Part shown: positions 2,207 to 34,264 of the stretch, piece by piece
How positions within the stretch are numbered: the first letter of the stretch is position 1
Layout: every line of letters begins with the position of its first letter
Source of the DNA: Shigella phage SSE1
Direction: 5' to 3' (one strand)
Sequence record: MK639187
Length of the DNA stretch: 64,000 nt
Notes under the pieces: model-generated
Told to the model about the DNA's origin: nothing
The model's input: only the letters and a program-made list of their open reading frames with translations
Database searches by the model: none
Program-made: the position numbers and the translations under genes

Positions 2207-4020
2207 CAATTGAAAACGAAATTGAAGGATTGATTCATAAAACTAATAAAGACCTTTTAAACGAGAATGCTAATAAAGATTCTCGTGTTTTTCCAACTCA
2301 ACGTGACCTTATGGCTGGTATTGTATCTAAACACATTGCCAAAAATATGGTCGCGTCTTTTATTATGAAAGCACATGAAAGCGGAATTATTCATTTCCAT
2401 GATATTGATTATTCCCCTGCTCTTCCATTTACTAATTGTTGTTTAGTAGATTTAAAAGGAATGCTTGAGAACGGGTTTAAGCTCGGTAATGCGCAGATTG
2501 AAACTCCCAAATCAATCAGTGTTGCTACTGCAATTATGGCACAAATTACTGCGCAGGTTGCTTCCCATCAATATGGCGGAACGACTTTTGCTAATGTAGA
2601 TAAAGTACTTTCTCCTTATGTTAAACGTACCTATGCGAAACATATTGAGGACGCGGAAAAATGGCAAATCACTGATGCGTTGAATTACGCTCAATCTAAA
2701 ACAGAAAAAGACGTATATGATGCATTCCAAGCTTATGAATATGAAGTAAATACTCTCTTTAGTTCAAATGGTCAGACTCCTTTTGTGACAATTACATTTG
2801 GTACTGGAACTGACTGGACTGAACGAATGATTCAGAAAGCAATTCTGAAAAATCGTATTAAAGGTCTTGGTCGTGATGGGATAACTCCTATTTTCCCTAA
2901 ACTTGTTATGTTCATTGAAGAGGGTGTCAATCTTTATAAAGACGACCCGAACTATGATATTAAGCAGCTTGCTCTAGAGTGTGCAAGCAAAAGAATGTAT
3001 CCTGATATTATTTCAGTTAAGAACAATAAAGCTATCACTGGTTCATCTATTCCTGTTTCTCCAATGGGTTGCCGTAGTTTCTTGAGTGTATGGAAAGATT
3101 CGACTGGTAATGAAATTCTTGATGGACGCAATAATCTTGGTGTTGTAACACTGAATCTTCCTCGTATTGCATTAGATTCTTATATTGGAACACAGTTCAA
3201 TGAACAGAAATTTGCCGAATTGTTCAATGAGCGAATGGATTTATGTTTTGAAGCTTTGATGTGTAGAATTAGTTCCTTAAAAGGAGTTAAAGCGACTGTT
3301 GCTCCTATTCTTTACCAAGAAGGTGCATTCGGGGTTCGTCTTAAACCTGATGACGATATAATTGAGTTATTTAAAAACGGTAGAAGTTCAGTGTCCCTAG
3401 GATACATTGGTATTCACGAATTGAATATTCTTGTCGGTCGTGATATTGGACAAGAAATTTTAACTAAAATGAATGCTCATCTTAAACAGTGGACTGAAAG
3501 AACCGGTTTTGCTTTTAGTTTGTATTCTACACCTGCTGAAAACCTTTGTTATCGCTTCTGTAAACTTGATACTGAAAAATATGGAAGTGTAAAGGATGTT
3601 ACTGATAAAGGCTGGTACACTAATAGTTTCCATGTTTCAGTAGAAGAAAATATTACTCCGTTTGAAAAGATTTCTCGTGAAGCGCCATATCATTTCATTG
3701 CGACCGGTGGTCACATTTCTTATGTTGAACTTCCTGATATGAAAAATAACTTAAAAGGTCTTGAGGCTGTATGGGATTATGCCGCACAACATTTAGATTA
3801 TTTTGGTGTTAATATGCCAGTAGATAAATGTTTTACATGTGGAAGTACCCATGAAATGACTCCTACTGAAAACGGATTTGTTTGTTCAGTTTGCGGAGAA
3901 ACTGACCCTAAAAAGATGAACACAATAAGAAGAACTTGTGGTTATTTGGGAAATCCGAACGAACGCGGATTTAATCTCGGCAAAAATAAAGAAATCATGC
4001 ATAGGGTTAAACACCAATGA
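2203..4020 (+). CDS. nrdD: Anaerobic ribonucleoside-triphosphate reductase NrdD
   Basis: 605 aa, C-terminal CxxC zinc ribbon and glycyl radical region (RTCGYLG); single uninterrupted ORF. Confidence 0.95.
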   Translation: MTIENEIEGLIHKTNKDLLNENANKDSRVFPTQRDLMAGIVSKHIAKNMVASFIMKAHESGIIHFHDIDYSPALPFTNCCLVDLKGMLENGFKLGNAQIETPKSISVATAIMAQITAQVASHQYGGTTFANVDKVLSPYVKRTYAKHIEDAEKWQITDALNYAQSKTEKDVYDAFQAYEYEVNTLFSSNGQTPFVTITFGTGTDWTERMIQKAILKNRIKGLGRDGITPIFPKLVMFIEEGVNLYKDDPNYDIKQLALECASKRMYPDIISVKNNKAITGSSIPVSPMGCRSFLSVWKDSTGNEILDGRNNLGVVTLNLPRIALDSYIGTQFNEQKFAELFNERMDLCFEALMCRISSLKGVKATVAPILYQEGAFGVRLKPDDDIIELFKNGRSSVSLGYIGIHELNILVGRDIGQEILTKMNAHLKQWTERTGFAFSLYSTPAENLCYRFCKLDTEKYGSVKDVTDKGWYTNSFHVSVEENITPFEKISREAPYHFIATGGHISYVELPDMKNNLKGLEAVWDYAAQHLDYFGVNMPVDKCFTCGSTHEMTPTENGFVCSVCGETDPKKMNTIRRTCGYLGNPNERGFNLGKNKEIMHRVKHQ

Positions 4021-4487
4021 ATTATGATAGATTTTATCCTTGCGATTTTGTGAATGGCCCTGGTTGCAGGGTCGTTCTTTTCGTTACGGGTTGTTTGCAT
4101 AAATGCGAAGGGTGTTATAATAAATCAACATGGAATGCTAGAAATGGTATTCCATTCACTGGTGAAACACTAGAACAATTGATTGAATGTTTGAATAATG
4201 ATTATATAGAAGGATTAACTATAACCGGAGGAGACCCTCTCTATCCTGATAACCGAGATGTTATTCATCGCATTGCTCAAACAGTAAAAAATCTTTATCC
4301 CAATAAAAGCATTTGGTTGTGGACAGGATATAAGTTTGAAGATATTAAACAACTAGAAATGCTTAAATATGTTGATGTTATTATTGATGGGAAGTATGAG
4401 AAAAATCTTCCGACTAAAAAGCTGTGGCGAGGATCAGATAATCAGCGACTTTGGTCAAATACCGATGGGGTGTGGAAACATGATTAA
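4017..4487 (+). CDS. nrdG: Anaerobic RNR activating radical-SAM protein NrdG
   Basis: 156 aa, CLHKCEGC radical SAM cluster motif; start overlaps nrdD stop. Confidence 0.9.
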   Translation: MNYDRFYPCDFVNGPGCRVVLFVTGCLHKCEGCYNKSTWNARNGIPFTGETLEQLIECLNNDYIEGLTITGGDPLYPDNRDVIHRIAQTVKNLYPNKSIWLWTGYKFEDIKQLEMLKYVDVIIDGKYEKNLPTKKLWRGSDNQRLWSNTDGVWKHD

Positions 4488-5133: not shown

Positions 5134-5422
5134 AATTTATGGCATCCCTGAAGAAGTAGGACGTTGTCCAGGATGTTATACTGTTACAAAACTTTTAAAG
5201 GAGCTCAATGCTCCTTATACATTTTATAAAGTCCTCACTAATAATGGTAAGATTGAATATGACCGTCCTTTAATCGTATCTCTTGCTAAACGTGCAGGAT
5301 TCACTTCACTTAATATTCGTTATCCTGTCATATTTTTAAATGATAAGAAACAAAAGAATATTGCAGAGTTTAAAAAGTCCTTGATTTCATTAGGATATGA
5401 CTCCGATATCATAGAAGATTGA
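5120..5422 (+). CDS. nrdH: Glutaredoxin-like protein (NrdH-like), start codon unresolved
   Basis: CPGCY redox motif in KIEIYGIPEEVGRCPGCYTV; no in-frame ATG near the conserved N-terminus; ORF-track ATG 4970 lies inside the preceding gene. Confidence 0.6.
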   Translation, partial: KNKIEIYGIPEEVGRCPGCYTVTKLLKELNAPYTFYKVLTNNGKIEYDRPLIVSLAKRAGFTSLNIRYPVIFLNDKKQKNIAEFKKSLISLGYDSDIIED

Positions 5423-5531
5423 CCAGGTGCCGCCTGGTCTTCTTTATCTCATTTCTAATATAATCCATTGGAATCTTCACTTCACTATCTCCTTGTGCCC
5501 CTCTCAAATCAAAAAATATTTTCATAAAACA

Positions 5532-5560
5532 GTTTACATCCTCAATAGATGTGTTAAGAT
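5532..5560 (+). promoter_or_regulatory. T4-type early promoter (GTTTAC-17-TAAGAT)
   Basis: Seen in sequence, upstream of ORF 5589. Confidence 0.6.
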
Positions 5561-5588
5561 TAAACCATCTACTATAGAGGAAAATAAA

Positions 5589-5771
5589 ATGACAATTGAA
5601 GATAAAGAAATTAAGGTCGACCAGTACTATTCTGTCAACGGTAGTGCAGTACAGATAACCAGAGTTTCAAGCCTGGATGTTTGGTACCGTTCGATCAAAT
5701 ATCCAGAAATTGGTGAAATGCTTTGTGTCCGTGGTATCTTCTGTTCAATTGCGAAGGAAATTAAGCCATGA
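5589..5771 (+). CDS. Hypothetical small protein
   Basis: ATG 5589 after GAGGA and an early promoter; ORF-track extension to 5427 would span the promoter. Confidence 0.5.
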   Translation: MTIEDKEIKVDQYYSVNGSAVQITRVSSLDVWYRSIKYPEIGEMLCVRGIFCSIAKEIKP

Positions 5772-6016
5772 TTAGTTTAGATTCAAAGAAAGTTGTTCTA
5801 ACTCTTAATGTAAACAACGAACGTCTGATATTCATTACCATTTCCGATTTGAACGTTGAAATTGCTAATGGCGTCCGTACTTATCAAACGTCTAAAACAC
5901 ACTGGGACTATATCCCAATGTTGACGCTTACTCAGCGTTTAGAATCAATCGGTCTTAAAGACCTTTCAGTAAGTGAAGTGAATTTTATCAAACGCATTGT
6001 ATCAATCAACCTCTGA
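5768..6016 (+). CDS. Hypothetical protein
   Basis: 82-aa ORF, start overlaps previous stop. Confidence 0.5.
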   Translation: MISLDSKKVVLTLNVNNERLIFITISDLNVEIANGVRTYQTSKTHWDYIPMLTLTQRLESIGLKDLSVSEVNFIKRIVSINL

Positions 6017-26837: not shown

Positions 26838-28280
26838 GTGGTAGAAATTATTTTGTCTCATCTAGTATATGACCAGGCTTATTTTTCTAAGGTCTGGCCT
26901 TATATGGATTCTGAGTATTTTGAGCGTGGACCGGCAAAAAACGTCTTTAAAATTATAAAGAGCCACGTTAACGAATATAATGCAATGCCATCTATCAATG
27001 CATTAAAGGTGGCTTTAGATAACAGTTCTTTAACTGAAGCAGAATATAAAGGAACTTCAGACCTAATTGAAAAATTGGCTGATACTCCTGAAGACCACGA
27101 ATGGTTGGTTAAAGAAACTGAGAAATATGTCCAGCAAAAAGCGATGTATAATGCTACATCCAAAATCATTGAGATTCAGTCTAATGCTGAACTACCTCCA
27201 GAACAACGTAACAAGAAAATGCCTGATGTAGGAGCTATTCCTGATATTATGCGTCAAGCACTTTCAATTTCGTTTGATAGTTATGTTGGACATGACTGGA
27301 TGGAAGACTATGAAGCCCGCTGGCTTTCTTATCTGAACAAAGCACGTAAGGTCCCGTTCAAATTAAACATTCTGAATAAAATCACTAAAGGTGGCGCTGA
27401 AACTGGTACACTGAATGTTTTAATGGCTGGTGTTAACGTTGGTAAATCTTTAGGCCTTTGTTCACTTGCTGCAGATTATCTTCAAACAGGTCATAATGTT
27501 CTTTATATTTCCATGGAAATGGCTGAAGAAGTTTGTGCTAAGCGTATAGATGCAAACATGCTTGACGTATCACTTGATGATATTGATGATGGTAACGTAT
27601 CTTATGCCGAATATAAAGCCAAGATGGAAAAATGGCGTTCAAAAACAACATTAGGACGTTTAGTAGTTAAACAGTATCCTACTGGCGGAGCTAATGCTAA
27701 TACATTCCGTGCATTGCTTAATGAATTGAAACTCAAGAAGAACTTTGTGCCATCTGTAATCATGGTTGATTACTTAGGTATTTGTGGGTCTTGTCGTATC
27801 AGAGTTTACACTGAAAATAGCTACACATTAGTTAAAGCTATTGCAGAAGAACTTCGTGCATTAGCAGTAGAATCTGAAACAGTTCTATGGACTGCCGCTC
27901 AAGTAGGACGTGCAGCATGGGATGCTTCGGATATGAACATGAGCGATATTGCAGAATCAGCAGGTTTACCAGCAACGGCAGATTTCATGTTGGCCGTAAT
28001 TGAAACCGAAGAACTTGCACAAGCTGAACAACAACTTATCAAACAAATCAAATCACGATATGGTGATAAGAATAAATGGAATAAATTCCTGATGGGTGTA
28101 CGTAAAGGCAACCAGAAATGGATTGAGATTGAGCAAGAAGGAATGAACACACCTAACACGGTAAATGAAAACGCAGGTGCTCAGATGCGTCAGGCAGAGG
28201 TGAATCGTACGGAACGCGTAGGTAAAGCCAAAACAACACGGGCTGACCTAGATAGCTTAGCCAATGAGTTAAAATTTTAA
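26838..28280 (+). CDS. 41: Replicative DNA helicase gp41 (DnaB-like)
   Basis: 480 aa, GTG start, Walker A GVNVGKS, recognised as T4 gp41-like. Confidence 0.95.
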   Translation: MVEIILSHLVYDQAYFSKVWPYMDSEYFERGPAKNVFKIIKSHVNEYNAMPSINALKVALDNSSLTEAEYKGTSDLIEKLADTPEDHEWLVKETEKYVQQKAMYNATSKIIEIQSNAELPPEQRNKKMPDVGAIPDIMRQALSISFDSYVGHDWMEDYEARWLSYLNKARKVPFKLNILNKITKGGAETGTLNVLMAGVNVGKSLGLCSLAADYLQTGHNVLYISMEMAEEVCAKRIDANMLDVSLDDIDDGNVSYAEYKAKMEKWRSKTTLGRLVVKQYPTGGANANTFRALLNELKLKKNFVPSVIMVDYLGICGSCRIRVYTENSYTLVKAIAEELRALAVESETVLWTAAQVGRAAWDASDMNMSDIAESAGLPATADFMLAVIETEELAQAEQQLIKQIKSRYGDKNKWNKFLMGVRKGNQKWIEIEQEGMNTPNTVNENAGAQMRQAEVNRTERVGKAKTTRADLDSLANELKF

Positions 28281-28287
28281 TAAAAAG

Positions 28288-28306
28288 GAGACTTCGGTCT
28301 CCTTTC
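28288..28306 (+). terminator. UUCG-tetraloop hairpin after gp41 (GGAGAC-TTCG-GTCTCC, short T-run)
   Basis: Seen in sequence. Confidence 0.5.
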
Positions 28307-28309
28307 GGG

Positions 28310-28339
28310 GTTTACATCTTCCTCTAGGCATGATATGAT
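28310..28339 (+). promoter_or_regulatory. T4-type early promoter (GTTTAC...TATGAT)
   Basis: Seen in sequence. Confidence 0.6.
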
Positions 28340-28368
28340 GAACTTACACCAACCAAGAGGAAAACATT

Positions 28369-28743
28369 ATGAATATGTCTCAAGCAATTTTTACTGCAAT
28401 CACCGAAAACACAACTGTTGAAGTAGTTTCTCCGCTGGCAACCTACGTTATTCTTGCTCCTAAAACTATTGTATCTCGTATGGAAAACACAGGCAAACGT
28501 ATCGTACAAATAGTTGGAGCTGGAAATCAAAAACTTGATTATCTACGAACCATCAAAGCTTATGAACATTTCCAACTCGAAAAAGGTTCTCCTATCCAGG
28601 TAGAACTCGTAAATGGTGATATCGTTCGAGCAATGTTCCATCATTTCTATGCATTGAATGACCCGTCTAAAGCGGTTCGTTTAATTGCATACGACGCAAA
28701 CCAAAACGAAATCAACGCAGATATATCTAAATTACGTTTTTAA
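28369..28743 (+). CDS. Hypothetical protein
   Basis: 124-aa ORF after early promoter 28310-28339. Confidence 0.5.
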   Translation: MNMSQAIFTAITENTTVEVVSPLATYVILAPKTIVSRMENTGKRIVQIVGAGNQKLDYLRTIKAYEHFQLEKGSPIQVELVNGDIVRAMFHHFYALNDPSKAVRLIAYDANQNEINADISKLRF

Positions 28744-28744
28744 G

Positions 28745-28793
28745 TTTACTTCTCCAGTAGTTGTGTTATTATAGACCTATCAACTACTGGAGA
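28745..28793 (+). promoter_or_regulatory. Early promoter with -10 inside 12-bp inverted repeat (PeSL-like)
   Basis: GTTTAC-17-TATTAT; CTCCAGTAGTTG/CAACTACTGGAG. Confidence 0.6.
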
Positions 28794-28798
28794 ACAAA

Positions 28799-29116
28799 AT
28801 GAAAACCATCGATTGTAAAGCAGAATTTAAGATTTTTTATCACGGTTCAAGTAGTTCAGCTAACATCGAAAACATGCTTTGTCCTCCTGAAGAAACAGGA
28901 GTTCTGTCTGAAACAGGACGTAAGAAAAACTTGGATCGTGTATTCTTTACCGAAGATATCGGTTTAGCAAAGATTTATGCAGGACGAGCAGCACGCTCTT
29001 ATGGAGGTGAACCACGTCTCTATCGAGTAATTTCTCCGGTAGATGTAGTTCAAATGAATAATACTAAAGGTGCTACAGTTTATCACGCTGAATGGGCATT
29101 TTGCGAGGAAATATGA
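28799..29116 (+). CDS. Hypothetical protein with YHGS motif
   Basis: 105-aa ORF after promoter cassette 28745-28793. Confidence 0.5.
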   Translation: MKTIDCKAEFKIFYHGSSSSANIENMLCPPEETGVLSETGRKKNLDRVFFTEDIGLAKIYAGRAARSYGGEPRLYRVISPVDVVQMNNTKGATVYHAEWAFCEEI

Positions 29117-29301
29117 GCAAATTAACTAAAGTTACTTTTATTGGCTGGTTTAAAAGCGGTGAGATGTTCACTAAAGATATCATGTTATCAGGTGACCGTG
29201 AAGAAATTGAGTGGGTTGCTGTACAACTTGCTGAAGTGAACAACGCATTAGTTAAAGCATTTGTTAATGACGAGAAAGTTTTTGAAGCCGATTTTCGATA
29301 A
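29113..29301 (+). CDS. Hypothetical small protein
   Basis: ATG 29113 after GAGGA. Confidence 0.4.
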   Translation: MSKLTKVTFIGWFKSGEMFTKDIMLSGDREEIEWVAVQLAEVNNALVKAFVNDEKVFEADFR

Positions 29302-29314
29302 TTTTAAAATAACT

Positions 29315-29344
29315 GTTTACAAGCATCGCATACTGTGTTACTAT
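29315..29344 (+). promoter_or_regulatory. T4-type early promoter (GTTTAC...TACTAT)
   Basis: Seen in sequence. Confidence 0.55.
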
Positions 29345-29372
29345 CTTTCTATCAACTACAGAGGAAATTGAA

Positions 29373-29741
29373 ATGAAAAAATTAATCGCTTTAGCAATGG
29401 TATTTGGATTAACCGGATGTGGTGCCCATGGCTTTATCCCTAATAACGTTGGCCAACTGATTTACAATCCGAATGTTAAACAGTATGACCAACCTAAAGT
29501 TGAAGTGGAAGACCCGGTTACTGTAGGTAATCGAATGATTCAAGCTGATGCTCATGCTCAACGTTATCGTGATTCTGATACTGTAGCTGTGTCAAAAGAA
29601 CAGCGCGTTAAAGAACATTGTCTACAGGCTACTGAAATCGCATTCATTCGCTATATTGAAACAACTGGTAAAGAGCCTACCCAGAAACAAATCGCGAATA
29701 ACTACGTCCAGTGTATTGAACGTTTAAACAAATTTAATTAA
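29373..29741 (+). CDS. Putative lipoprotein
   Basis: Signal peptide with lipobox LTGC. Confidence 0.55.
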   Translation: MKKLIALAMVFGLTGCGAHGFIPNNVGQLIYNPNVKQYDQPKVEVEDPVTVGNRMIQADAHAQRYRDSDTVAVSKEQRVKEHCLQATEIAFIRYIETTGKEPTQKQIANNYVQCIERLNKFN

Positions 29742-29744
29742 TTG

Positions 29745-29774
29745 GTTTACACCAAAGTTAAAACAAGATATTAT
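29745..29774 (+). promoter_or_regulatory. T4-type early promoter (GTTTAC...TATTAT)
   Basis: Seen in sequence. Confidence 0.55.
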
Positions 29775-29802
29775 AAACATAACAAATTAAGAGGAAATTA
29801 AC

Positions 29803-30051
29803 ATGGAATTATTCGTAGCTAGTTCAGTAGCAGTTTTAATCGCAGGTATTGGTTCAATCATCATTTACATGTTGCCTTGGGTAATCGCACTTATTCGTGG
29901 CACAAAAAGCACAACAGCAATCTTCTTTATATCTTTACTCTTTAACTGGACGATGATTGGTTGGATCGGAACTTTAATTTGGTCTATCGTTGCCGAAAAG
30001 AAATCTGCTCAGCAGCCTCAACAAGTAATTATTATTCGCGAAAAAGAATAA
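29803..30051 (+). CDS. imm: Superinfection immunity protein (Imm-like)
   Basis: 82 aa, two TM segments, FNWTMIGWIGTLIWS motif. Confidence 0.65.
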   Translation: MELFVASSVAVLIAGIGSIIIYMLPWVIALIRGTKSTTAIFFISLLFNWTMIGWIGTLIWSIVAEKKSAQQPQQVIIIREKE

Positions 30052-30055
30052 ACCT

Positions 30056-30092
30056 GTTTACATTATAGATGGACTCTATAGTATAGTAGTCC
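30056..30092 (+). promoter_or_regulatory. Early promoter with GGACT/AGTCC stem (PeSL-like)
   Basis: GTTTAC-17-TAGTAT. Confidence 0.5.
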
Positions 30093-30116
30093 TATCAAAT
30101 CAACTAAGGAGTTAAA

Positions 30117-30410
30117 ATGAAAAAGTTATCATTGGCAGCAATCTTACTTGCAGTATCATGCGCACCAGCTCCAGTTACGGCAGGTTATGATAAAGACCTC
30201 TGTGAGTGGTCAATGACTGCAAATCAAGAAGATGTTGAACAACAAATCTTCTCTGATATCATGAACATCACTAAACGAGACCGTCCTAATATGGTTAATA
30301 AAGTTGTTGAACAACTTAAGTCTGGTGGTATCATGCAGTACAATTATGTTTTGTATTGTGACCCTAATTTCGATAACAAAGATATCGTAACCGAAATCAC
30401 AGGTGAATAA
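30117..30410 (+). CDS. Secreted/lipoprotein, possibly spackle-like
   Basis: 97 aa, signal peptide with AVSC lipobox. Confidence 0.5.
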   Translation: MKKLSLAAILLAVSCAPAPVTAGYDKDLCEWSMTANQEDVEQQIFSDIMNITKRDRPNMVNKVVEQLKSGGIMQYNYVLYCDPNFDNKDIVTEITGE

Positions 30411-30411
30411 T

Positions 30412-31062
30412 ATGATTTATTATATGCACAAAAATGCGCCATTTAAATATGGTAAATTTCCTAATGCACAATGTTATAATATAACGCCGAATGAAAATAA
30501 TAAAGGATATCATATTGGTGTAATTTTTGTAATTGTTAAAGATAACGAAATCGTTGCCTGGGCAGATTTTAAAGGTACAACGTATGATGTTAATCCGGTG
30601 CCTTTCACATATTACAATATAATGGATTTGGCATATGATTATAATTGGTTTAATCATGACGCGTTGGTTCATATTGAAGGTGTAGGATTTGACATCTCCT
30701 ATTCTAGCTATTCATTATGTCCTATGAGCCGAGCTCACGGTAAAGATGTATCATATCTTTCAATTCGGAAACGTGTAAACTTCAAACGTAGTACAGAGTA
30801 TGTTGGTGGACTCTTTGTTAAAGATAATAAAATAACCCGTATTAGTTATCCTTTAAGTGTAGGTCAAAAAGATGTTGATGTTGATTTAGACTTAACCGAA
30901 AATAACATTAATCATATTGCTTCTGTATATTTTGATATTGATGAAAAAATTGTAGTATGTGGATACGAATTACCACCTGAAGAAAAGGCTGAAGCAATTG
31001 AAGTCGAATTAGAAATTTCTGTTGATGACCAAATATTTAATGCATTTATGAATCGAGGTTAA
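30412..31062 (+). CDS. Hypothetical protein
   Basis: ATG 30412 after AGGTGA; ORF-track start 30403 is GTG. Confidence 0.5.
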   Translation: MIYYMHKNAPFKYGKFPNAQCYNITPNENNKGYHIGVIFVIVKDNEIVAWADFKGTTYDVNPVPFTYYNIMDLAYDYNWFNHDALVHIEGVGFDISYSSYSLCPMSRAHGKDVSYLSIRKRVNFKRSTEYVGGLFVKDNKITRISYPLSVGQKDVDVDLDLTENNINHIASVYFDIDEKIVVCGYELPPEEKAEAIEVELEISVDDQIFNAFMNRG

Positions 31063-31063
31063 A

Positions 31064-31261
31064 ATGACTACTGCAATTTGCACTGGTTCTAAAATTAGTG
31101 TTTTTACAAGTTTTGAAGATTATGAAGTTGTTTCAAAACACCAATACCATATTAGCGTAAAAGCTAATGATGGCGTAATTTGGAATATTCCACAGTATGA
31201 AGGCACTACATATGAAGTCACAGATATAAATGGTGACAAAGCAATCTTTGTAATTGATTAA
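31064..31261 (+). CDS. Hypothetical small protein
   Basis: 65-aa ORF. Confidence 0.4.
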   Translation: MTTAICTGSKISVFTSFEDYEVVSKHQYHISVKANDGVIWNIPQYEGTTYEVTDINGDKAIFVID

Positions 31262-31280
31262 ATATACTCAGGAGGTACCT

Positions 31281-31748
31281 ATGGGTATTATTAACACTGC
31301 AATAGATTCTGTTTATGCATATAAGTTTATTCGACTAATGCAAAAACCTTTTACCGAATGGAAAGCATACGAAGCCAAAATCATCGATGAACGTGGAAGT
31401 GTTCTTAAACGTCCTTCTACTCCCGAAGAAAAAGCGGCGTATACACCTTTTCATGCTTCAGTTCGTTCAATGAAGCGAATGATGAGCACTGTTCCGGGTC
31501 TTAATGGAATGGCCTCAATGATGTCTGCCTGGAGTGCTGTAGCTTCACGCTATAACATTACGGAAGAACAGCAGAAAGAAATATTTAAAGAACTCCCTTT
31601 ATTTGAGGATATGGTTGCTGGTGATTCAGGTGGCAGCCCTCAAGCTATTGCATCAGGAACAACTACAGGTGCAGTAGTAAATAAAGGTCCAGAACAAATT
31701 CCTTCCAAGAAAAGAAAGCGAATTAAAGTAAATATTAATAAGTTGTGA
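31281..31748 (+). CDS. Hypothetical protein
   Basis: ATG 31281 after AGGAGG. Confidence 0.5.
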   Translation: MGIINTAIDSVYAYKFIRLMQKPFTEWKAYEAKIIDERGSVLKRPSTPEEKAAYTPFHASVRSMKRMMSTVPGLNGMASMMSAWSAVASRYNITEEQQKEIFKELPLFEDMVAGDSGGSPQAIASGTTTGAVVNKGPEQIPSKKRKRIKVNINKL

Positions 31749-31787
31749 TATGATGGCCTTATTAATTTAAGGCCTCTGGAGAATACT

Positions 31788-32810
31788 ATGGCTGAATGGA
31801 TAGATAATGAATTTGCTTATCGTGCGTTTTCTCACCTACCTCGTTTTAGACAAATCAATAATTCAAGCACATTTAAATTAACATTTCGTTGTCCAGTTTG
31901 TGGCGACTCCCAGACAGATGCAATGAAAGCTCGCGGTTGGTATTATGGCGGTACTCCTGGTAATGTACATTGCTATAACTGCCAATACCACAATACAATT
32001 TCCGGATACTTAAAAGAGTATGATGAAGAGCTTTACCGCGAATATCTAATGGAAGTTCGTAAAGAAAAAGCTAGAATGGAACCAAAGATTGAAAAGGTTC
32101 CTGAAGCTAAGCCGGAGCCAGAGAAAAAGACTATAAATTCTTTGCCGTCTTGTTCTCGTCTGGACAAGCTGCCTGAAGAGCATCCTATTGTGAAATATGT
32201 TAAGTCTCGATGCATTCCTAAAGAATCATGGAACAGATTATGGTTCACATTAGAATGGCCTAAATTGGTCAACAAGATTCAACCTGGTACGTATAAGAAA
32301 GAGATTCCCGAACCACGTTTAGTGATTCCTATTTTTAATAAAGACGGGAAGGCTGAGTCATTCCAAGGACGTGCACTTCGTAAAGATGCTCCTCAGAAAT
32401 ATATCACTATTAAAGCGTTTGAGTCCGCAACAAAAATTTATGGTGTTGAACGTGTTAAGGAAGGGGACGTCTGGGTAATGGAAGGCCCTATTGATAGTTT
32501 ATTCATACCCAATGCAATCGCTATTACAGGCGGCTCAATAGATTTAGATGTGGTACCATTTAAAGAACGTCGGGTATGGGTAATGGATAATGAACCTAGG
32601 CATCCGGATACTATAGCTCGCATGAAGCGATTAGTTGATGCAGGCGAACGTGTCATGTTCTGGGACCGAGCTCCATGGAGATCAAAGGATGTGAATGATA
32701 TGGTAATGAAAGAAAATGCAACACCACAAGAAATTTTAGAATATATGAAACAGAATATTTCAAGTGGGTTGCATGCTAAAATGAGATTATCTCGTTATTC
32801 GAAGATTTAA
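31788..32810 (+). CDS. 61: DNA primase gp61
   Basis: 340 aa, N-terminal zinc ribbon CPVCGD...CYNC, TOPRIM-like core. Confidence 0.85.
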   Translation: MAEWIDNEFAYRAFSHLPRFRQINNSSTFKLTFRCPVCGDSQTDAMKARGWYYGGTPGNVHCYNCQYHNTISGYLKEYDEELYREYLMEVRKEKARMEPKIEKVPEAKPEPEKKTINSLPSCSRLDKLPEEHPIVKYVKSRCIPKESWNRLWFTLEWPKLVNKIQPGTYKKEIPEPRLVIPIFNKDGKAESFQGRALRKDAPQKYITIKAFESATKIYGVERVKEGDVWVMEGPIDSLFIPNAIAITGGSIDLDVVPFKERRVWVMDNEPRHPDTIARMKRLVDAGERVMFWDRAPWRSKDVNDMVMKENATPQEILEYMKQNISSGLHAKMRLSRYSKI

Positions 32811-33004
32811 ACAAGCCCTATAATAGCAAAGGCCAAATCAACTACAGTATCCAATGGAACAGAAGGAACTATAATACCATGGGCAACTAACAATGGCGCA
32901 ATCCCGAAGTTCCATGAAATAATGCCACCTACAACTATTGCAGCGATAGCAGTTTTCTTTTTATTGCCTTTAATAGCGTTGATTAACGATGGAAGTTTAA
33001 ACAT
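32807..33004 (-). CDS. Small membrane protein on the opposite strand
   Basis: 65 aa, two hydrophobic segments; SD AAGGAGA and late-promoter-like AATAAATA upstream on the - strand. Confidence 0.5.
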   Translation of the reverse strand: MFKLPSLINAIKGNKKKTAIAAIVVGGIISWNFGIAPLLVAHGIIVPSVPLDTVVDLAFAIIGLV

Positions 33005-33091: not shown

Positions 33092-33742
33092 GTGAATTAC
33101 CAAAAAATTTACTCGGATTTAATTACAAAAGCTAAATGCCGGCATCTTGGCGGATATAAAGAACGCCATCATATAATTCCTAGATGTATGGGAGGAGCAG
33201 ATGGCAAAAACAATCTTGTTGAGTTAACTGCGCGTGAGCATTTTATAGCTCATAGATTATTAACTAAAATATATCCAGATGTGAGAGGATTGCATTATGC
33301 TGTAAATTTAATGCGATATAATAAAGGTGTTAAATTAACAAGTAGATTAATAGAAACCCTTAAAATCCAAAACTCTGTTCTTTTCTCGGGTGAAAATAAT
33401 CCTAGATATGGCAAGCCGTCATGGATTAAAGGTAAAAAGACTCCAGAAGAAACTAAAGCCAAAATGCGTCTAGCTCATAAAGGTAAAATTATATCCGATG
33501 AAGCCAAGGCTAATATGAGTAAAGCCCGAAAAGGAAGATTTAGCGGTAAAAATTCGCCTCGATATGGTTTACCAAATCCTAGGCGAGGAGAAATATGGAA
33601 TAGTTATGATGCGCTTTATGAATTATGGGTTTATAATAATAGACCTAAGCGCACAAAATTTAATAAAATAGCTGTCAAGGCAGGTTATCCTAATATCTGC
33701 TATAGACATATGATAGAAAACTTCATAAGAAAGGAAAATAAC
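33092..33742 (+). CDS. HNH homing-endonuclease-like domain, reads in frame into gp56 without a stop
   Basis: GTG start; HHIIPRCMGG HNH core; NUMOD3-like repeats (GENNPRYGKP, GKNSPRYGLP). Confidence 0.65.
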
Positions 33743-34264
33743 ATGCCACATTTCAACGAATGTAGTCAACTGATCGAAGGTGTTGATAAAGCAGAAGAAG
33801 CTTATTTTAATGCTCTGATTCATGAAGATAAAGACCCACTGCAGGTAATGCTTGATATGCAGAAATCTTTACAGGTTCGTCTGGCAAATGACAAGCCTGA
33901 ACATAACAAACATCCTGATGAATTAGCCACTGCTGGCGATGTTGTTGATTGGCTGCGTAATCAGAAAGATTATATTGATGATGAATTCCGTGAACTGCTG
34001 ACTTCACTTGGTGGTATGAGCAATGGTGAAAAAGCCGCTAGCTCTGTATGGAAGCCTTGGAAAGCTCAACATGCTGAATATCGAAATCGTCGTATCTATG
34101 AACTGTCTCCTGAAGACCAGCTTGAAATTAAATTCGAGATGATTGATATTCTGCACTTCGTTCTGAACATGTTCCAAGGTCTGGGTCTTTCTGCTGAAGA
34201 AATCTTTAAACTTTACTACTTGAAAAACCAACACAACTTTGAACGCCAGGATAATGGTTACTGA
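33743..34264 (+). CDS. 56: dCTP pyrophosphatase gp56
   Basis: Internal ATG 33743 after AAGGAAA; 173 aa recognised as T4 gp56-like. Confidence 0.85.
   Translation: MPHFNECSQLIEGVDKAEEAYFNALIHEDKDPLQVMLDMQKSLQVRLANDKPEHNKHPDELATAGDVVDWLRNQKDYIDDEFRELLTSLGGMSNGEKAASSVWKPWKAQHAEYRNRRIYELSPEDQLEIKFEMIDILHFVLNMFQGLGLSAEEIFKLYYLKNQHNFERQDNGY

Follow-up and report, generated by a model that had tools for sequence, protein, structure and literature searches.

A probable conserved accessory cluster of early genes between genes 41 and 61 of the RB69-like Shigella phage SSE1

Results

We analyzed the interval between the replicative helicase gene 41 and the primase gene 61 in a 64,000-nucleotide (nt) stretch of Shigella phage SSE1 (sequence record MK639187), hereafter the window, which belongs to a Mosigvirus (RB69-like) genome. 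The interval spans positions 28281–31787 (3,507 bp) and is bounded by the end of gene 41 at 28280 and the start of gene 61 at 31788. The left flank is a 480-amino-acid (aa) open reading frame (ORF; 26838..28280, + strand) whose position matches the gene 41 coding sequence (CDS) in the phages AV109, HX01, 308Ecol101PP and RB69, and the right flank is a 340-aa ORF (31788..32810, + strand) whose position matches the annotated primase CDS of the relatives. Exactly nine ORFs, all on the plus strand and termed here orf1 to orf9, fill the space between them, confirming the nine small genes counted in the initial annotation of this DNA, whereas the minus-strand ORFs of the interval are short and nested within the plus-strand genes. 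Six of the nine are members of named T4 families, namely Dmd, Imm.1, Imm, Spackle, AdfA and a full-length 61.1. Five of the proteins scored above the curated Pfam cutoffs (Dmd, DUF5481, Imm_superinfect, T4_Spackle and AdfA), in agreement with the PHROGs assignments. An NCBIfam search of the block proteins yielded nothing significant, the PADLOC defence models gave zero matches for all nine proteins, and an Rfam scan of 27.8–33.2 kb returned only a chance microRNA-like match (E 0.2). Gene identities, synteny, promoter motifs and one fold prediction were obtained from the analysis itself; all activities given below, as well as the early timing, are carried over from orthologs.

A megablast search with the interval retrieved 354 phage records, 154 at 95–99% identity and 152 covering at least 80% of the query, with PTK, AV109, JS09 and HX01 as the best matches (97.7–98.1% identity). 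The records examined among these matches (AV109, HX01, 308Ecol101PP and RB69) are all Mosigvirus and carry matching annotations of dmd, imm and sp. The order in RB69 reads 41, ORF041c, ORF040c, dmd, 61.4, imm.1, imm, sp, 61.2, ORF033c, ORF032c/61.1, 61, and that in T4 (NC_000866) reads 41-dmd-61.4-sp-61.2-61.1-61, with imm.1-imm located between 42 and 43. The initial annotation had taken gp41 and gp61 for close neighbours in T4 and the interval for an insert of ~3.5 kb, which is contradicted by these maps: T4 has 1,648 bp between the two genes, four of the five genes held there (dmd, 61.4, sp, 61.2 and 61.1) are orthologous to the block, and RB69 as well as over 150 Mosigvirus genomes have the same arrangement annotated. 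Its description as a hyperplastic region fits insofar as the interval varies between T4-like genera, but not within Mosigvirus, where it is nearly fixed except that 61.4 is present or absent. The RB69 slot between 42 and 43 is annotated with sugar-metabolism-type genes, e.g. arabinose 5-phosphate isomerase. A similar promoter cassette stands upstream of imm.1 in T4, so that the imm.1-imm pair probably moved together with its promoter.

Based on these data we read positions 28281–31787, with a probability of about 90%, as a conserved early-gene accessory cluster of RB69-like (Mosigvirus) T-even phages located between 41 and 61, and not as a novel insert. The block is already annotated and partly characterized, and its arrangement has been public since the RB69 genome, which was sequenced in 2003. 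Some RefSeq product names for the region are misleading (HX01, NC_018855; T4, NC_000866), with imm.1 termed 'iduronate sulfatase' and gene 41 'AAA family ATPase'; the 61.4 gene of HX01 is named 'DNA polymerase', and the ORFs of the RB69 61.1 region are named inconsistently.

Two adjacent genes of the block, imm and sp, belong to families linked to superinfection exclusion, and imm.1 precedes them. The imm.1 gene (orf4; 29373..29741, + strand) encodes a 122-aa lipoprotein of the DUF5481 family (PF17578, E 3.6e-9, 37.4 bits against a cutoff of 27) with 32% pairwise identity to T4 Imm.1. Its amino terminus is hydrophobic and contains an LTGC lipobox at residues 13–16, followed by two conserved cysteines, C83 and C114. 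As in T4 and RB69, it is located directly upstream of imm (orf5; 29803..30051, + strand), encoding an 82-aa superinfection immunity protein with two transmembrane (TM) segments (PF14373, E 1.8e-15, 57 bits against a cutoff of 27.9), which exhibited 65% pairwise identity over 83 aa, the full length of T4 Imm. A Kyte–Doolittle scan located its two hydrophobic stretches within residues 1–34 and 40–59. The sp (spackle) gene (orf6; 30117..30410, + strand) encodes a 97-aa periplasmic protein (PF25676, E 1.1e-42, 145 bits against a cutoff of 27) that aligns without gaps to T4 Sp (gp61.3) at 66% identity, with C29 and C81 conserved and an amino-terminal hydrophobic, signal-like segment evident from the hydropathy check. 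The lipoprotein, the Imm-like two-TM protein and the secreted protein that had been proposed for this DNA were thus borne out by hydropathy and lipobox analysis as orf4, orf5 and orf6.

Spackle has been described as a periplasmic helical protein, featuring an export signal and a Cys29–Cys81 disulfide pair, that binds to the gp5 tail spike at its lysozyme domain, which it inhibits, and that, together with Imm, leads to superinfection exclusion (PMC7677548). Judged by their sequences, imm and sp are the classical T-even superinfection-exclusion genes. By orthology, the two-TM protein Imm would reside in the inner membrane and block the entry of later-arriving T-even phage DNA, Spackle would be exported to the periplasm to bind and inhibit the gp5 tail lysozyme of superinfecting phages, and Imm.1 would be the lipoprotein always accompanying imm.

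The dmd gene (orf3; 29113..29301, + strand) encodes a 62-aa predicted antitoxin mimic directed against the host RNases RnlA/LsoA (PF17587, E 1.9e-19, 70.2 bits against a Pfam cutoff of 27) and is 54% identical to T4 Dmd. Its start overlaps the stop of orf2 by 4 nt (ATGA). Dmd stands in for the labile antitoxin of the host and blocks the RNases RnlA and LsoA (PMC5308261, PMC8266594); the window protein would likewise, by orthology, bind and neutralize these toxins after decay of the labile antitoxins. The window is devoid of 61.4, with ~206 bp missing compared to HX01 and RB69. The deletion junction was mapped to 29285–29315, at a short ATTT(C/T) similarity between the ends of dmd and 61.4, and since it is located at the 3' end of dmd, the last codons of Dmd are changed, reading ...EADFR instead of ...EADFRG. 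AV109 has this haplotype lacking 61.4 as well, as do roughly half of the top 40 Mosigvirus matches.

The adfA gene (orf7, corresponding to T4 61.2; 30412..31062, + strand) encodes the 216-aa anti-DarT factor A (PF23813, E 3.3e-120, 399.6 bits), with 97% identity to the RB69 and 69% to the T4 protein. AdfA was discovered in RB69; wild-type RB69 AdfA (Arg164) fails to bind DarT1, whereas its R164H escape variant binds, and T4 AdfA is naturally His at this position (PMC11257639). In the window the equivalent codon 168 encodes His (NNINHIAS compared to NNINRIAS in RB69), as it does in HX01, 308Ecol101PP and T4, with Arg found in RB69 and AV109. By orthology, AdfA would bind the DNA ADP-ribosyltransferase toxin DarT1, the window protein carrying the His allele that neutralizes it in RB69. 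The His/Arg polymorphism segregates within Mosigvirus. The gene that JS98-like phages carry after sp, located in Dhakavirus MN04 at 3758–4192 of the stretch examined, has a 144-aa product, of which only the carboxy-terminal third is common with AdfA, including the same end ...DDQIFNAFMNRG. This suggests that AdfA is modular, with a conserved carboxy-terminal and a swappable amino-terminal domain.

The exclusion or anti-defence cargo anticipated for the interval is present by orthology, comprising imm and sp, accompanied by imm.1, on the exclusion side and dmd and adfA on the counter-defence side. These genes have conserved partners in related phages, several of them with published phenotypes. 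The count of five further genes without recognizable function does not stand, as two are Dmd and AdfA, one is a homolog of T4 61.1 and one adopts a predicted ADP-ribosyltransferase (ART) fold; orf1 and orf8 stayed blank in the homology and structure searches of the unknowns that led to these identifications.

The predicted minimal ART, of the H-Y-[EDQ] type, is encoded by orf2 (28799..29116, + strand; 105 aa; RB69ORF040c in RB69). Its AlphaFold2 (AF2) model yielded a predicted local distance difference test (pLDDT) score of 87.5, and Foldseek placed KptA and Arr at the top ranks. In BFVD the model matched a phage 'Arr-family rifampin ADP-ribosyl transferase' (37% identity, E 2e-8) as well as a PcfJ-like polyvalent protein. 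On the sequence level, ART-family profiles gave only sub-threshold matches (Arr-ms, E 0.12; ART-PolyVal, E 0.19) in one to two of 30 orf2 members, and a PDB sequence search with the orf2 profile gave no match even at E 10, so that the ART assignment is based on the fold and not on sequence. We found 140 orf2 homologs at 60% identity or above in the protein collection, and by tblastn the gene is present in 609 phage records across Straboviridae, labelled 'ADP-ribosyl transferase' by some depositors. The residues H15, G16, F49, T51, Y60, R63 and E103 show no variation among 30 diverse homologs. Placed by motif spacing and predicted secondary structure, H15, F49, Y60 and E103 fall in the expected predicted strands, and the spacing of YHG[ST] in strand 1, F-F-T-x8-Y and the terminal Glu appears to follow that of the H-Y-E motifs in PARP and diphtheria toxin.

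The orf2 gene is probably translationally coupled to dmd. For phages of Escherichia, Shigella and Salmonella, Iyer et al. 2022 predicted a pair made up of a 'p0068-family ART' toxin and Dmd as antitoxin (PMC9503650). The orf2-dmd arrangement fits this description, with RB69ORF040c as a candidate p0068-family ART, and the existence of an orf2-type ART and its pairing with Dmd appear to be already predicted in the literature. Tentatively, and at low odds, orf2 could be an active minimal ART made in the first minutes of infection that modifies RNA itself or a host component of defence or RNA metabolism, in the manner of an AcrF11-like counter-defence enzyme. Dmd, or the unrelated small ORFs replacing it elsewhere, might then tune or restrain orf2. 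If true, orf2 would represent a new counter-defence enzyme conserved in ~600 sequenced T4-like phages.

A speculative and rather unlikely alternative is that orf2 as the toxin and dmd as the antitoxin form a phage-borne type II toxin–antitoxin pair, which would give Dmd a second job besides RnlA/LsoA. The published prediction, the ATGA overlap of stop and start, and the adjacency of ART and dmd kept in Mosigvirus and Dhakavirus MN04 all point in this direction, as does the tiny ORF lying closely 3' of the ART in Slopekvirus, Tulanevirus, Lazarusvirus and Kanagawavirus (58, 81, 30 and 46 aa, respectively, at distances between a 4-nt overlap and a 4-nt gap). However, these small ORFs are related neither to Dmd nor to one another, yet the ART is ~64–77% identical, a poor fit for a co-evolving partner. 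Moreover, T4 has a functional dmd with no ART homolog adjoining it, and among the orf2 tblastn matches listed none is T4 or an identified Tequatrovirus.

The first gene of the block, orf1 (28369..28743, + strand; 124 aa; RB69ORF041c), was assigned to phrog_10668 with no Pfam match. It is a near-orphan almost confined to Mosigvirus, represented by 2 clusters among 5.8 billion proteins in an indexed search. An exhaustive HMMER scan yielded five matches, two of which are giant adhesin-like proteins with Big_9 or PKD repeats aligning over residues 29–101, a weak hint that orf1 may adopt in part an immunoglobulin-like (Big_9) fold; the weak resemblance to bacterial Big_9 repeats covers residues 45–101. 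For orf8 (31064..31261, + strand; 65 aa; RB69ORF033c) only phrog_3249 was matched. This gene occurs without informative annotation in 262 phage records, the majority from phages of Escherichia, Shigella and Salmonella, and the examples listed comprise several Mosigvirus genomes and Salmonella phage S16. A literature search on the RB69 ORF names returned nothing functional.

The last gene, orf9 (31281..31748, + strand), encodes a 155-aa protein that we identified by its similarity to T4 gp61.1 (75% identity over 40 aa, residues 102–141) as full-length 61.1. T4-type phages have only a carboxy-terminal remnant of ~54 aa, and in the RB69 reference the 155-aa gene is split into ORF032c and 61.1 by a 1-nt deletion in an A-run (5318–5784 in the NC_004928 stretch examined). 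A frameshift in RB69 30.3 has also been reported (PMC11257639), which suggests that the RB69 reference strain carries several broken accessory genes (61.1 and 30.3). A tblastn search located the 61.1 family in 1,473 phage records, among them Aeromonas, Acinetobacter and Klebsiella phages, and 588 of these matches are near full length.

This breadth would be compatible with a role in replication, instead of host/phage conflict, for some genes of the block, mainly the long 61.1 and perhaps the ART, which we nevertheless consider improbable. The gene neighbourhood adds to its appeal, with the long 61.1 located just upstream of gene 61 in the window, RB69 and Lazarusvirus Stupor, a long-form homolog annotated as 61.1 in RB16, and the ART homolog directly following gene 41 in Mosigvirus, Dhakavirus and Kanagawavirus. 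However, the 54-aa remnant of T4 together with the RB69 frameshift indicates that full-length 61.1 is dispensable, the ART lies away from gene 41 in Slopekvirus and Tulanevirus, and profile searches detected no domain tying 61.1 or orf2 to DNA replication.

Using a strict T4-type early pattern (GTTTAC[AT]-N15-17-TA..[AT]T), we detected 14 matches on the plus strand and none on the minus strand of the 64 kb window, where ~0.46 would be expected on each strand. The interval contains five of these 14 matches, all in intergenic gaps on the plus strand and each ~55 nt upstream of an ATG. These consensus matches are the predicted early promoters of orf1 (28310..28339; GTTTACA-N17-TATGAT), orf2 (28744–28772), imm.1 (29315..29344), imm (29745..29774) and the run sp-adfA-orf8-orf9 (30056..30084). 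The statement that most of the genes have their own early promoter therefore holds for five of the nine and fails for dmd, which overlaps orf2 by 4 nt, for adfA and orf8, which follow after 1-nt gaps, and for orf9, which follows after a 19-nt gap. As sigma-70-type early promoters, the five would turn the genes on within minutes of infection. A generic sigma-70 scan of the region did not rise above chance (27 sites compared to 21.7 ± 5.2 expected).

With five promoters at 28.3–30.1 kb, the interval holds the densest early-promoter cluster in the window. A (C)TATCAA motif stands directly after the −10 element in most of the 14 matches. Shared promoter sequence was considered as a sign of cassette recombination and downgraded, as CTATCAA after the −10 element is common to the early promoters of the window. 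Just 3' of the gene 41 stop, we read from the sequence a hairpin, GGAGAC-TTCG-GTCTCC followed by TTT (28287..28302, + strand), which may attenuate or terminate transcription and may form with the next promoter a unit resembling the promoter-early stem-loop (PeSL) cassettes; a generic terminator scan did not call it. The orf2 promoter is located within a 19-nt inverted repeat (28745–28763 / 28781–28799, 89% complementary) that takes in its −10 element and the orf2 Shine-Dalgarno sequence.

Downstream of the interval, a 390-aa ORF (33092–34264, + strand) comprises an HNH homing endonuclease of ~217 aa that runs in frame, without a stop, into gene 56 (dCTPase), the latter part starting near 33743. 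AV109, HX01 and RB69 have just a ~90-nt gap before a 522-bp gene 56, and AV111 annotates the same 1,173-bp CDS. The HNH part is 97–98% identical to DNA of several other coliphage and Yersinia phage genomes (fPS-2, IME340, G50), where it is annotated as a gene of its own, apart from gene 56. On the minus strand, this part of the window carries a single gene, a 65-aa hydrophobic ORF (32807–33004; RB69ORF029w in RB69) whose overlap with the 3' end of gene 61 measures 4 nt. The Klebsiella Kanagawavirus KLB31 has a similar transmembrane ORF on the minus strand at the same place, indicating conservation across genera.

Discussion

Several points weigh against the reading of the 41–61 interval as a conserved cluster of early accessory genes. 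All activities are carried over from T4 or RB69 orthologs at 32–97% identity, and the five predicted promoters are consensus matches. The AF2 model of Imm.1, derived from a three-sequence alignment, is poor (pLDDT 62.6) with only the helices in residues 75–120 confident. Likewise, orf2 has no significant Pfam or NCBIfam match, and the mapping of its putative catalytic triad follows motif and predicted secondary structure instead of a residue-level structural superposition. Finally, DarTG1 resistance of T4 does not require AdfA, and residues besides 164 may matter (PMC11257639), so that the His allele is no guarantee of activity in the window phage.

A recently acquired foreign island of ~3.5 kb between otherwise adjacent genes, which the roughly twofold length compared to T4 (3,507 bp versus 1,648 bp), the content varying between genera and the near restriction of orf1 to Mosigvirus might evoke, was rejected as highly improbable, being ruled out by the T4 and RB69 gene maps (five T4 genes between 41 and 61, four with syntenic orthologs here; the same block in RB69 and more than 150 genomes at 95–99% identity), while the GC content of 0.30–0.40 equals that of the flanks and no integrase, flanking repeats, att-like ends or mobile-element genes were found.

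As a conserved accessory cluster, the block unites the textbook T-even exclusion set (imm, sp) with a counter-defence set (dmd, adfA) and carries little weight as a discovery; it does correct a false premise on the T4 gene order. Given its His allele of AdfA, the window phage may resist DarTG1 where RB69 does not. The minimal ART of orf2 and the broadly conserved long 61.1 are reasonable targets for anti-defence screens, the uncharacterized ART being the sole part with some discovery potential.

Compared to known systems, the intergenic units in part resemble the PeSL cassettes described for T4-like hyperplastic regions (PMC2839356, PMC4122927) in that they are short, combine a strong early promoter with a stem-loop beside small accessory ORFs, and are located in an interval that varies between genera. 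They differ in that, of the five promoters, only the one following gene 41 and that of orf2 have a clear stem-loop, in that the sequence common to the cassettes is largely the general early-promoter consensus of the window, and in that no recombination product was seen except the 61.4 deletion, which is located in coding sequence. Among the ARTs, orf2 with its 105 aa is smaller than Arr (140 aa) and AcrF11 (137 aa), and it is devoid of the RNA-binding lobe of Tpt1 (KptA).

The window and T4 agree in the order of the orthologs dmd, sp, 61.2/adfA and 61.1 inside the 41–61 interval and in the adjacency of imm.1 and imm, a pair that in both has a similar promoter cassette upstream. In contrast to T4, where imm.1 and imm are 11 nt apart without a separate imm promoter, the window has this pair in the 41–61 interval instead of between 42 and 43. 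It has in addition orf1, orf2 and orf8, for which no homolog is annotated in the T4 14–30 kb stretch examined, and it has lost 61.4, whereas T4 61.1 is reduced to the 54-aa remnant. Relative to RB69, the window lacks 61.4, retains an intact 61.1 of 155 aa and has His in AdfA in place of Arg164; in gene order, orientation and annotations, RB69 (RB69p042–RB69p030, NC_004928) as well as JS09, HX01 and AV109 are the same as the window.

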